Below are positions 8,607 to 40,964 of a stretch of 64,000 nucleotides of DNA, piece after piece (the first letter of the stretch is position 1; each line of letters starts with the position of its first letter). The DNA is from Alphaproteobacteria bacterium (GTDB lineage Bacteria; Pseudomonadota; Alphaproteobacteria; DATDPM01): NCBI GenBank assembly GCA_041498815.1, contig JBGQJC010000005.1:2629-66628 (forward strand), written 5' to 3'. Both the position numbers and the translations under genes were made by a program. The notes under the pieces were generated by a model. It saw only the letters and a list, made by a program, of their open reading frames with translations. It was not told where the DNA came from and ran no database searches.

Positions 8607-8682
8607 TGGTGCCGCCTGGGTGACTCGAACACCCGACCCCCGCATTACGAATGCGATGCTCTACCAACTGAGCTAAGGCGGC
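8607..8682 (-). tRNA. tRNA-Thr (anticodon CGU)
   Basis: Hand-folded cloverleaf: acceptor GCCGCCU/AGGCGGC, D-arm GCUC-AGUUGGUA-GAGC, anticodon loop UUCGUAA, T-loop UUCGAGU, discriminator A, CCA encoded. 76 nt. Confidence 0.85.
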
Positions 8683-35480: not shown

Positions 35481-35555
35481 ATGGAGCGGGAGACGGGAAT
35501 CGAACCCGCGACCCTCACGTTGGCAACGTGATGCTCTACCTCTGAGCTACTCCCG
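35481..35555 (-). tRNA. tRNA-Gly (anticodon GCC)
   Basis: Hand-folded cloverleaf: acceptor GCGGGAG, D-arm GCUC-AGAGGUA-GAGC, anticodon loop UUGCCAA, T-loop UUCGAUU, discriminator U, CCA encoded. Confidence 0.85.
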
Positions 35556-35765
35556 CATTCCGCCCGGCCCCAGACGGGCGGGGTCCGATAATAAGTAAAG
35601 CCCCCGGCATTGCAAGCCTTCCCCCGAAGCCTTAAGCGGCGTCCCCAGGCGACGGTTCTTGCCCGGCGAAGCCGCAGGTTCCATTTATAGGGCCTGCGGT
35701 CTTAACATATCCTTATCTGCGCCAGGCCCCAGGAACAGGGCCCGACAGGAGTCCCCGGAAAACCG

Positions 35766-39218: not shown

Positions 39219-39510
39219 GGGCCGCAGCTTGGCGGGGTCACTCCCTGCTGTCCAGAACGGGGGGCTCTGACCGCGGGAACCCACTGGTTTTGCGGGGCCG
39301 GGCGGGGCTTTGTACAGAAAATGGCGATTGTATAGATGACAAACCCAATGGATTTGCGTGCGCGCGGTGCCACACCCTAGCTTTTCTGCCGTTGGCAGGC
39401 GTGCGCGCCGCACATTCCCGTTGCGCCCAGCGCAATTTGCTGCGAGAAAATATCAGGATGTTAAGAGTTATTTAACCAAACATTAACGATTTATTAATCT
39501 TTATTAAGAA

Positions 39511-39597
39511 TGGTGGGGTCGGCGGGATTCGAACCCGCAATCCGTGGGAGGAAGCCGCATCCAAAGCGGCTGCGTTTACCTATTTCGCCACGACCCC
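39511..39597 (-). tRNA. Class-II (long variable arm, Leu-like body) tRNA, 87 nt, with anticodon loop UUUGGAU (anticodon UGG by standard numbering); identity uncertain
   Basis: Acceptor GGGGUCG/CGACCCC, discriminator A73, 3-bp D-stem with Leu-like D-loop AAAUAGGUAAA, anticodon stem GCCGC/GCGGC, 15-nt variable arm, T-arm GCGGG-UUCGAAU-CCCGC, CCA encoded. Confidence 0.7.
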
Positions 39598-39605
39598 ATA
39601 CGCGA

Positions 39606-39680
39606 TGGCGGACCGGGGGAGATTCGAACTCCCGACCAACGGAGTAACAGTCCGTTGCTCTGCCACTGAGCTACCGGTCC
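39606..39680 (-). tRNA. tRNA-Asn (anticodon GUU)
   Basis: Acceptor GGACCGG, D-arm GCUC-AGUGGCA-GAGC, anticodon loop CUGUUAC, T-loop UUCGAAU, discriminator G, CCA encoded. 75 nt. Confidence 0.85.
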
Positions 39681-39689
39681 AAATCGCGT

Positions 39690-40964
39690 AGCGGGCGTGG
39701 GGCGGCCCTCGGTGTCCAACTTTGGGCCGCCCCCGCCCCGACCAATCCGTCTGCGATGTATCGTCGCAGGCGAACAAAACGAGTCCTAACCCTCCTAAAT
39801 ACTTAACGCAAGGGGGGTTTGTCCAGATGTTGTGGATTTTTACAATGCCGGGCCACAAGTCAATTGGGAAAGACAAGACAAGGCCGACAACGGCCTTTCG
39901 CAGTGGGCCAGTGACGCTTCATCCTCTCAAATTCGAGGAGGCAGTTGCCGGGCTCGTTAAAGTTAAGCCAGACGCGCCATTGGTGCCCGGTAAAGAAGCC
40001 TCTTCCCCTCGGCCCCGCGCACTGCGTTCATCGCCCGCTCGCCGTCCGTAATCTTCCGGCTGTTCCATCGAAATTCAAACTCCCGCAAATAGCGGCTTAA
40101 GTGGCGTTCGCTCACATGATGGAACGTGCCGAAAATGCCGCGCTTCAAGAGCGAGTGGTACGACTCAGCAAAATTGATATGGATGATGCCTCGGACGTAG
40201 GATTTCGAGTGATTGATGACTGAGTGCCACGCGAAACGCTTTTTAAGACCGCGGTACGCTTGGTATTGGTCCGTGATGATATGCGCCGTGTCGTTTACCG
40301 CGAGTTGGATAATCGGCTTCAGGCTGCCAGCCTTCGAATTGGGGATGTGAAACGTGCGGGCTTCACCTTGGCGGTCAACAAGGGTCATAACGACCATCTT
40401 ATGAGCGGTTCCGCGTCCTACCCGCCGCTTGCGCATATTATTGCTGAATTTGCCGCCGATATAAGTTTCATCTACTTCGACAGTGCCGCCGTCTTTCCCG
40501 AGCATTCCGATTAATGGCGGCTGAGACATCGCAAGCCGGACGCGATGGCATAAAAACCATGCGCTTTTGTAAGTAAGACCAAGCTCGCGCTTTAGCTGGT
40601 TCGCGCTCACACCCTTTTTCGAGCTGCACATTTGGAAGATGGCATATAGCCATTTCCCGAGCGGGATGTGTGAGTCCTCGAAGATGGTCCCCACCCGCGC
40701 CGTGAATTGCTTACGGCATTTGCCGCACTTGCGGAGCCCAAGGCGCGTTGTGCTGCCTTCGATGCTGTAAATCTTCTCGGCGCTGTTGCAATGCGGGCAA
40801 ACCGGCCCATTCGGCCAACGTAGGCCCTCTACAAAGGCAATCGCGGCCTTCTCGTCGTTAATGAATTGTGCTATCTCATTGATATTCATGGCCGTATCTC
40901 CTATTACGGCCTCATTGTAGACCCTCCATTGGGTCTGTCAAGTATATAATCGCCCAGAAAATGA
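39690..40964 (-). mobile_element. IS1595-family insertion sequence (boundaries approximate)
   Basis: Single transposase ORF in a lower-GC segment. A direct 8-9-bp match (C)AAATCGCG at 39681-39689 and 40964-40972 may be a target-site duplication. No convincing terminal inverted repeats were found by eye. Confidence 0.4.
39963..40889 (-). CDS. IS1595-family transposase (DDE transposase with N-terminal zinc-ribbon)
   Basis: N-terminal CPHC...CGKC zinc-ribbon, followed by the DDE domain pattern typical of IS1595/ISXO2-like transposases (308 aa). Confidence 0.8.
   Translation of the reverse strand: MNINEIAQFINDEKAAIAFVEGLRWPNGPVCPHCNSAEKIYSIEGSTTRLGLRKCGKCRKQFTARVGTIFEDSHIPLGKWLYAIFQMCSSKKGVSANQLKRELGLTYKSAWFLCHRVRLAMSQPPLIGMLGKDGGTVEVDETYIGGKFSNNMRKRRVGRGTAHKMVVMTLVDRQGEARTFHIPNSKAGSLKPIIQLAVNDTAHIITDQYQAYRGLKKRFAWHSVINHSKSYVRGIIHINFAESYHSLLKRGIFGTFHHVSERHLSRYLREFEFRWNSRKITDGERAMNAVRGAEGKRLLYRAPMARLA

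Follow-up and report, generated by a model that had tools for sequence, protein, structure and literature searches.

Which amino acid is delivered by a transfer RNA (tRNA) that has the body of a leucine tRNA and the anticodon of a proline tRNA, and what is its role in an insertion sequence (IS)? This question is raised by the gene at positions 39511-39597 (minus strand) of a 64,000-nucleotide stretch of contig JBGQJC010000005.1, from the Alphaproteobacteria bacterium assembly GCA_041498815.1; the whole stretch is referred to as the window. Evidence is strong that the tRNA belongs to an IS, that it has a conserved family of relatives in similar elements, and that anticodons in this family are matched by codons at fixed sites of the transposase gene. 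The best reading of these data, to which we give an even chance, is that codons set aside for this purpose in the transposase gene are decoded by the element's own tRNA, which probably inserts leucine there.

Structure and identity features of the tRNA

The gene, an 87-nt class-II tRNA with encoded CCA, is called tRNA-Pro by ARAGORN, with the anticodon tgg at position 35, and is one of four tRNAs detected in the window by this program (Thr, Gly, Asn, and the UGG tRNA). The Rfam tRNA model (RF00005) gives it 62.4 bits (E = 3.9e-11, gathering score 29) and shows a long insertion where the variable region lies, and a covariance model built from the family of element-borne tRNAs gives 94.9 bits. 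The minimum free energy (MFE) fold is a cloverleaf, in which the 7-bp acceptor stem GGGGUCG/CGACCCC is followed by A73 and the encoded CCA. The D-arm is comprised of a 3-bp stem (GCG/CGC) and an 11-nt loop, AAAUAGGUAAA, and the anticodon arm of the stem GCCGC/GCGGC and the loop UUUGGAU (U34 G35 G36, A37). The variable arm, UUCCUCCCACGGAUU, is 15 nt long, while the T-arm is standard, with the T-loop UUCGAAU. All features looked for on the basis of RF00005 are in place, including the cloverleaf, U8, A14, G18G19, a UUCRANY T-loop, and the acceptor stem with its discriminator base. ARAGORN, Rfam, and the MFE fold agree with the initial annotation of this gene, whose description (87 nt, Leu-type body, A73, UGG, A37, stems, and arms) proved exact. 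Structure-aware placement of the anticodon also gives tgg, and no canonical Leu or Ser anticodon.

Leucyl-tRNA synthetase (LeuRS) of E. coli recognises tRNA-Leu by A73, A14, A15:U48, the layout of the D-loop, and the long variable arm, and bacterial LeuRS does not read the anticodon. Leu-type features of the D-arm and core are said to have been described as LeuRS determinants by Asahara and colleagues in 1993. In the window tRNA, A73 is accompanied by a Leu-type D-arm and core (3-bp D-stem, A14, placement of G18G19, and the A15:U48 Levitt pair), and the anticodon is UGG instead of a leucine one (NAG or YAA). Prolyl-tRNA synthetase (ProRS) of bacteria uses C1:G72 and G15:C48. Among features of tRNA-Pro, G35, G36, and A73 are present, while in place of C1:G72, G15:C48, a short class-I variable loop, and G37 the window tRNA has G1:C72, A15:U48, the 15-nt arm, and A37.

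A blastn search with the UGG tRNA through E. coli genomes gave no match, and explicit alignment was used in its place. The D-arm region is 70-95% identical to that of E. coli tRNA-Leu (leuT, leuZ), and 35-65% identical to those of tRNA-Ser, tRNA-Tyr, and tRNA-Pro(UGG) (alignment including serT, tyrT, and proM). Element tRNAs share with leuT and leuZ the class-II form, the 3-bp D-stem, a GGCGRAAYNGGTARAC-type D-arm, A14, A15:U48, A73, and a variable arm of ~15 nt; they differ in having UGG or AGG instead of NAG or YAA, in being carried by an IS, and, in some, in having C33 or a pyrimidine at position 37. The Leu-type classification is supported by a metagenome scan in which the D-arm pattern retrieved genuine tRNA-Leu(UAA) genes, together with many Leu-like tRNAs; the pattern is not specific to the IS family.

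Insertion element carrying the tRNA

To characterize the locus, the same site was retrieved in close relatives by exact-protein look-ups of the neighbouring GlnK and UbiH-like protein. In six of them (L003-L008), flanks are ~95-98% identical to the window and positions 39325-40954 are missing; the empty site in L003, L004, and L006 reads GTACAGAAAATGGTCAAATC, with a single copy of 8 bp. Because the whole block is absent from relatives and is bordered by 30-nt inverted repeats and an 8-bp target duplication, the block 39323-40954 is one element of 1,632 bp, inserted between the ubiH-like gene and glnK. It belongs to the IS1595 family, as indicated by the DDE_Tnp_IS1595 and Zn ribbon domains, the terminal inverted repeats, and the 8-bp duplication. 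The transposase gene is followed on the same strand by both tRNAs, and a small open reading frame (ORF) lies on the opposite strand. Features of the element and its borders are as follows:

39315-39322, target-site duplication, left copy CAGAAAAT; recurs at 40955-40962, single copy at the empty site of relatives
39323-39352, terminal inverted repeat at the tRNA end, GGCGATTGTATAGATGACAAACCCAATGGA; 30 nt, 87% complementary to 40925-40954
39511-39597, minus strand, Leu-type class-II tRNA with UGG, A37, A73, and encoded CCA; ARAGORN, Rfam, fold, family covariance model, covariation
39606-39680, minus strand, canonical tRNA-Asn(GUU) upstream of the UGG tRNA, within the inserted block; ARAGORN, Rfam 74.1 bits
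39692-39740, minus strand, GC-rich leader hairpin upstream of the tRNA pair, GUUGGAC in the loop; inverted repeat, fold of -42.8 kcal/mol
about 39827-40051, plus strand, small conserved ORF of ~74 amino acids, motif GPVTLHPLKFEEAVAGLVKVKPD, start codon uncertain; family motif, synonymous turnover
39836-39863, minus strand, promoter-like site TTGACT-16-AAAAAT, TG-extended, candidate driver of the tRNA pair; consensus scan only
39880-39897, minus strand, terminator-like hairpin downstream of the transposase stop codon; consensus scan
39963-40889, minus strand, IS1595-family DDE transposase of 308 amino acids; PF12760 Zn_ribbon_IS1595 and PF12762 DDE_Tnp_IS1595, 7,835 homologues
39981-39983, minus strand, CCA codon at transposase residue 303, one of only two in the gene; codon entropy 0 in the family
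40515-40517, minus strand, CCA codon at transposase residue 125; CCA in 23/24 UGG-type elements, CCT in AGG-type
40914-40941, minus strand, promoter-like site for the transposase, TTGACA-16-TACAAT; 11/12 consensus matches, -35 hexamer inside the inverted repeat
40925-40954, terminal inverted repeat at the transposase end; pairs with 39323-39352
40955-40962, target-site duplication, right copy CAGAAAAT; repeat of the left copy

The initial annotation had placed the tRNA next to an IS1595 insertion. The association with IS1595 holds, but the tRNA sits inside the IS and not beside it. The reported distance of 8 bp to tRNA-Asn was reproduced by ARAGORN, which places tRNA-Asn(GUU) 8 nt off. Relatives possess no orthologue of the tRNA here, as the entire block came in by insertion. 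The element is a minimal form without cargo, and exactly this element is on record from a single insertion site.

Two further observations concern its parts. The inverted repeat holds a perfect inward-facing -35 hexamer (TTGACA) which, together with TACAAT 16 nt downstream, is the likely transposase promoter. The tRNA-Asn(GUU) is cargo of the IS, and hence an extra copy with respect to strains without the element; different companions, many of them degenerate tRNA-like sequences, occupy this place in other elements.

Distribution of related elements

A class-II tgg tRNA was found in the context of each of the two closest transposase clusters (81% and 75% identity). A transposase profile, run against a single genome of each species, disclosed 80 loci of 46-61% identity in Alphaproteobacteria, Chloroflexota, Acidobacteriota, and other phyla. 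In 24 of them ARAGORN detected a tRNA of 84-96 nt at ~0.1-2.3 kb from the transposase (20 tgg, 4 agg), and the family covariance model added three tRNAs with longer variable arms. Overall, transposases accompanied by related tRNAs are 40-81% identical to that of the window, and viral contigs are also among the carriers. In at least 11 elements, 1.9-3.4 kb long, inverted repeats (consensus GGCGATTATATACTTGACAAACCCA) and 8-bp duplications enclose both the transposase and the tRNA. Target duplications across the family are A/T-rich.

In a neighbour-joining tree of transposases, the tRNA and the small ORF follow one large clade and, with few exceptions, are missing from its sister clade. The element family has kept its transposase together with a Leu-type tRNA (UGG, or AGG in some lineages) and the conserved small protein over long evolutionary time. 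The suggestion that the tRNA could be a tRNA-like gene associated with a mobile element was borne out in a stronger form, as the tRNA belongs to the core of an IS1595 subclade and is inherited along with it.

As a separate observation, one related element (L023 1-5800, transposase 75% identical) is located in another organism between two amtB genes, again by a ubiH-like/glnK/amtB cluster; the shared location may be a coincidence or a regional target preference.

Selection on the tRNA

Structural conservation was assessed in an alignment of 27 distinct family tRNAs, with 500 shuffles and slid alignments as controls. Pairing was found in 99.4% of stem cells, and both-sided changes in 19 of 20 pairs. 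None of the 500 shuffles reached this, and slid controls paired at ~40%. Covariation extends to tertiary contacts: L036 has C19 with G56 in place of G19:C56, while A18 occurs together with G55 in L043, L050, and L099, which belong to different transposase clades. U8, A14, A15, A21, and U48 are invariant, A73 is present in 25 of the 27 tRNAs and G1:C72 in 24, and C1:G72 in none. The anticodon is UGG in ~88% of the family and AGG in the remainder; G35 and G36 do not vary, and position 34 is never C or G. U and A are the wobble bases able to read a whole four-codon box.

The UGG tRNA is therefore a real and intact gene, and not a pseudogene. A decaying tRNA-Leu(UAG), which had been proposed initially, or a chance tRNA-like sequence could be suspected because UGG is one substitution away from UAG. 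This explanation is refuted by comparative data, and we assign it a negligible probability: the fold is intact and covaries in the family, the cloverleaf and UGG or AGG are kept in dozens of diverged homologues, the anticodon persists across transposases that are 40-80% identical, and the empty site holds no orthologous tRNA-Leu.

Codons matched by the anticodon in the transposase gene

In four neighbouring host genes, CCA constitutes 1% of Pro codons. CCA occurs just twice in the transposase gene of the window, at residues 125 and 303, so the element pairs a rare codon with a tRNA of matching anticodon, and both codons are at sites conserved in the family. Positions of CCA were counted in transposase genes of 34 elements from tRNA-bearing clades. 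Residues 125, 196, and 303 account for 64 of the ~83 CCA codons:

Residue 303 (302 after a one-residue indel), 25 CCA codons
Residue 125, 23 CCA codons
Residue 196, 16 CCA codons
All other positions together, ~19 CCA codons

An unbiased scan of codon entropy was performed on all 87 columns with a conserved four- or six-fold-degenerate amino acid. The lowest values are those of residue 303 (H = 0; CCA in 20/20 UGG-type elements with Pro there) and residue 125 (H = 0.25 bits; CCA in 23/24), followed by a column with a preferred Gly codon at 0.93 bits. No column of comparably low codon entropy was detected by the scan in elements without the tRNA. Other conserved prolines (26, 29, 32, 76, and 183) show free turnover of CCG, CCC, and CCT, and almost never CCA; shared ancestry therefore cannot explain the conservation of CCA.

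In the AGG-type clade (L043, L049, L075, and L085), CCT is found at the sites of CCA. Another AGG-type element, L107 from a viral contig, has CCT at residues 125 and 303, and its transposase is 38-41% identical to those of the L043 clade and 42-46% to others. Anticodon AGG and codon CCT go together in these two lineages, which are unrelated to each other (Fisher p = 2.4e-4, with no correction for phylogeny). CCA at both 125 and 303 was also observed in distant UGG-type elements in the range of 41-44% identity (L112 and L116 with 41-43%, L248, L251, and L252). Position 34 is complementary to the third base of the fixed codons, which favours decoding on the ribosome, because a structural or protein-binding role does not predict that.

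Leucine or proline

Delivery of leucine by the UGG tRNA is favoured because the Leu identity set is present, acceptor and core features of Pro are absent, and the anticodon is ignored by bacterial LeuRS. With the evidence for and against taken together, we place it at roughly even odds.

Leu-type bodies with A73 and a leuZ-like D-arm were also found with the ochre-reading anticodon UUA (L027 7154-7240, L090 6780-6865, and L168 718-806). Those in L027 and L090 lie in IS1595-type elements, and no transposase was found in the 2.2-kb locus of L168. ProRS could not recognise these UUA-anticodon sisters. We looked for an in-frame TAA or a readthrough extension in the transposases of L027 and L090, and found none.

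At the protein level, residue 196 is variable in the 120 closest homologues (P in 71, L in 21, M in 7, and Y in 5), within the unambiguous context ..VR[P/L/M/Y]NVD.TAHI.TD. The window transposase has Leu (CTC) at this position; where DNA was available, the Pro codon was CCT in the AGG clade and CCA otherwise. At invariant prolines, CCA makes up 3% in tRNA-bearing elements and 10% in tRNA-less ones. Residue 303 also seemed to alternate between P (104) and L (11), but this was an artefact of a one-residue indel, with P at residue 302 in exactly 11 sequences, and was left unused.

Several observations weigh against leucine as the amino acid or against an efficient dedicated decoder. Residue 125 is a genuine Pro in 17 of ~50 elements without the tRNA. 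CCA codons of the transposase are, overall, not located in otherwise hydrophobic columns, and no column was found that is Leu in tRNA-less and Pro in tRNA-bearing transposases; there is consequently no wholesale recoding, only site-specific conservation of codons. In cargo genes, CCA is often at conserved prolines, although hydrophobic residues make up 19% of the partners of CCA-encoded Pro vs 12-14% for other Pro codons. The ProRS determinants G35, G36, and A73 make charging with Pro, or dual charging, possible, and archaeal-type ProRS reads mainly the anticodon. C33 (seven family members) and pyrimidine 37 (three members) are unusual features in tRNAs that decode efficiently. The codon rule has exceptions among UGG-type elements, with CCG in L233 and L046 and CCT in L044, L055, and L122, although CCT in the latter three could still be read by U34. 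An AlphaFold model of the transposase (predicted local distance difference test, pLDDT, of 55) is weakly informative.

Some of these points agree with a tRNA charged by ProRS through G35, G36, and A73. The fixed rare codons would then be brakes or pauses, relieved by the tRNA of the element in a manner resembling bldA and with no change of amino acid. We consider this helper role unlikely, yet the main competitor: it accounts equally well for codon-anticodon matching and for the rarity of CCA in the host, it agrees with the true Pro at residue 125 in many tRNA-less elements and with CCA at conserved prolines of cargo genes and the small ORF, and CCA is enriched overall in transposase genes accompanied by the tRNA (23% vs 12%). 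What it leaves unexplained is the Leu-type body (A15:U48, G1:C72, Leu D-arm, and long arm), kept in more than 40 diverged lineages with no drift to tRNA-Pro, as well as sister tRNAs of the same body with UUA anticodons, the P/L/M alternation at residue 196, and the fact that invariant prolines avoid CCA in elements with the tRNA but not in those lacking it. In addition, gating would probably be weak, as hosts must already decode CCA.

Small ORF, leader hairpin, and cargo

A small protein of ~55-80 amino acids, with basic tails, is found in almost every element that bears the tRNA. The motif P[VI]SLAPLxFE[ED]A[VL]xxLLxVKP is shared by about 40 related elements, and codons turn over synonymously, including AGY/TCN serine switches, indicating that the small ORF is a real coding sequence. 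Searches revealed no Pfam family and no word-index homologue, and an exhaustive phmmer search found only repetitive giants and one relative of 67 amino acids. The ORF is divergent from the tRNA, and in the window it overlaps the oppositely oriented transposase gene at the 3' end of the latter. Variable cargo is situated downstream of the small ORF, or else separates the tRNA from the shared promoter region, and comprises PIN_10 with a MerR/DUF433-like protein, SocA/Panacea, DUF3800, an ImmA/IrrE-like HExxH protein, and others.

In almost every element, a GC-rich hairpin of 9-13 bp is located 5-15 nt upstream of the tRNA, in some followed by a U-run in a terminator-like manner. The hairpin could be an attenuator or a protein-binding site, and either it or the small ORF may attenuate or otherwise regulate expression of the tRNA. 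In ~10 of 30 elements its loop carries YUGGA, the motif of the anticodon loop.

The latter similarity raises the question of whether the tRNA acts in translation at all. The UGG loop might instead be bound by the product of the small ORF, by the transposase, or by ProRS, or the RNA might be a processing or regulatory element of the IS. Besides YUGGA in hairpin loops, a conserved small basic protein without known function, C33 and pyrimidine 37 in some members, and degenerate companion tRNA-likes that keep YUUGGA loops (L050, L034, L065, and L072) are in accord with such a role. On inspection, the anticodon loop showed no complementarity beyond 3 nt to the inverted repeats or the mRNA. The restriction of position 34 to U or A, complementary to the third base of the dedicated codons, is a signature of codon reading, and the full cloverleaf, tertiary pairs, A73 and, in many members, the encoded CCA are kept. 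We therefore regard a non-translational RNA as very improbable.

Cargo genes of defence or toxin-antitoxin type bear on one more possibility, in which the Leu-charged tRNA is a general mistranslation cargo without a special tie to the transposase, producing proteome-wide Pro-to-Leu ambiguity that helps the host or the element under stress. The Leu identity set combined with a Pro anticodon fits this proposal, and the Streptomyces tRNAProX family provides a precedent (PMC10404621). Neither the site-specific conservation of CCA/CCT nor its covariation with the anticodon is predicted by it, and we find it improbable.

Proposed mechanism

According to the reading in which the element decodes its own codons, the UGG tRNA would work on the ribosome as a dedicated decoder of CCA sites, in the window at residues 125 and 303. 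It would be charged by LeuRS and would deliver leucine at CCA, so that a Leu variant of the transposase would be made in competition with the Pro variant produced by host tRNA-Pro(UGG). We infer expression of the tRNA, decoding of these sites on the ribosome, charging with leucine, and the regulatory consequence. In its full form, the model states that LeuRS-charged tRNA(UGG) may rewrite two to three CCA codons from Pro to Leu, and that the level of the tRNA may decide the transposase isoform and hence the movement of the element; for this form, we judge the chance to be slightly under even. The result would be a self-encoded recoding switch, probably tuned by the leader hairpin and the small protein, and Pro-to-Leu mistranslation at CCA in host genes, where this codon is scarce (1% of Pro codons here), would be a collateral effect. 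The original idea that the tRNA could insert Leu at Pro codons stays plausible and becomes sharper: its primary targets are likely to be the two to three CCA codons of its own transposase, and charging with Leu is deduced from identity elements.

Comparison with known systems

Natural tRNAs in which identity and anticodon disagree are very rare, and have been represented mainly by tRNAProX of Streptomyces and the poorly understood allo-tRNAs. The former, found in Streptomyces and Kitasatospora together with ProRSx, are bacterial tRNAs with a mismatch between identity and anticodon, some with A34, and have been shown to mistranslate (PMC10404621). Element tRNAs are similar in forming a natural bacterial family in which aminoacylation identity and anticodon disagree. 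They differ in that tRNAProX combine a Pro body with Ala, Thr, or Asn anticodons and a dedicated synthetase, whereas here a Leu body is combined with a Pro anticodon, an IS carrier, and matched codons in the carrier gene. The window element holds no synthetase gene, and neither the Pro body with a non-Pro anticodon nor the ProRSx neighbour of that system is found in it.

Allo-tRNAs are irregular class-II tRNAs of soil bacteria with missense or nonsense anticodons, located near toxin-antitoxin genes (Mukai et al. 2017, PMC5389517; review PMC7609411). One of them overlaps a transposon-related ORF, and a link with transposable elements was speculated on by the authors (PMC5389517, PMC7609411). 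Their acceptor/T stems are of the 8/4 or 9/3 type and their identity is Ser, while element tRNAs are of the canonical 7/5 form and Leu-type; in the window tRNA, the acceptor stem has 7 bp, the T-stem 5 bp, and the discriminator is A73 instead of G73. Neither element boundaries nor codon matching are described in the work on allo-tRNAs (PMC5389517). The elements presented here may explain the earlier link of irregular tRNAs, toxin-antitoxin genes, and transposon fragments.

In phages, suppressor tRNAs change the reading of the phage's own codons, which is thought to time expression (PMC10879173). The similarity, which for the IS tRNA is a proposal, would be that a tRNA of a mobile element alters the reading of codons in the element's own genes. 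Phage recoding concerns stop codons in many late genes of large phages, while in the IS it would concern sense CCA/CCU codons at two to three sites in one transposase gene of a 1.6-3.4-kb element.

The pairing of a rare codon with a specific tRNA in a GC-rich genome also resembles bldA of Streptomyces, a tRNA-Leu(UAA) whose level gates genes with rare TTA codons. That tRNA is chromosomal, correctly charged, and the sole decoder of its codon; the IS tRNA is carried by an element and has an anticodon at odds with its identity, and CCA is presumably decoded by the host as well.

IS1595-family elements with passenger genes ("transporter IS") are reportedly covered by ISfinder and by Siguier and colleagues in 2009. 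The Zn-ribbon DDE transposase, inverted repeats, 8-bp duplication, and variable passenger genes are common to them and the elements studied here, in which, unlike variable cargo, the tRNA and small ORF are constant and co-inherited in the subclade. We found no mention of tRNA passengers in IS1595-family elements in the literature searched, and full-text searches gave no description of a Leu-type tRNA with a Pro anticodon, an IS carrier, and matched transposase codons.

The present tRNAs form a large cross-phylum family in which a canonical Leu-type body with a Pro anticodon is carried by a simple IS, and in which target codons can be read from the transposase gene. If the proposed decoding is true, this would be the first natural gene-specific reassignment of a sense codon by an insertion sequence, adding a layer to the possible control of transposition by insertion sequences. 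The family also provides a specific model with which deliberate ambiguity of a sense codon in bacteria can be put to the test. For annotation, it means that such genes are labelled tRNA-Pro by their anticodon, and that "Pro" residues at CCA sites may not be Pro. Elements of this kind could spread mistranslation between genomes, and the Leu-type tRNA scaffold may be useful for engineering genetic codes.

Other tRNAs and tRNA-like sequences

In L251 (6269-6344), the long variable arm is lost, resulting in a 76-nt class-I-like tRNA with the loop CUUGGCU, G1:C72, and A73, while the transposase keeps CCA at residues 125 and 303. Degenerate second tRNA-likes accompany the UGG tRNA in a number of elements (L023 3968-4056, L033 6837-6908, L034 7458-7535, L050 2118-2186, L070 6060-6130, L252 6037-6108, and L065 8932-9002). 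They have odd D-arms, loops of 8 nt or more, or no D-arm, and several have a YUUGGA-type loop.

Other tRNAs lie beside IS1595 transposases. L076 (7024-7118) has a Ser-type (G73) tRNA of 95 nt with the anticodon UAU, recalling the allo-tRNA(UAU) group linked to transposons by Mukai et al., and L077 (4745-4831) has a class-II tRNA with the anticodon UAC.

The metagenome scan also revealed Leu-like class-II tRNAs with the same D-arm and GUA, UCA (opal), AUC, CGG, or GUC anticodons (L128, L133, L135, L149, L161, and L196), and a separate group with GUU and U37 (L134, L144, L177, L184, and others). Judging from this diversity, Leu scaffolds with swapped anticodons seem to be widespread in environmental DNA, and recoding by an IS may be one case of a wider phenomenon, which would include the UUA, UCA, GUA, AUC, and other anticodons on Leu-type bodies in metagenomes.

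The remaining tRNAs of the window, tRNA-Thr(CGU) at 8607-8682 and tRNA-Gly(GCC) at 35482-35556, both on the minus strand, are ordinary host genes, and no host tRNA-Leu or tRNA-Pro is located within the window.

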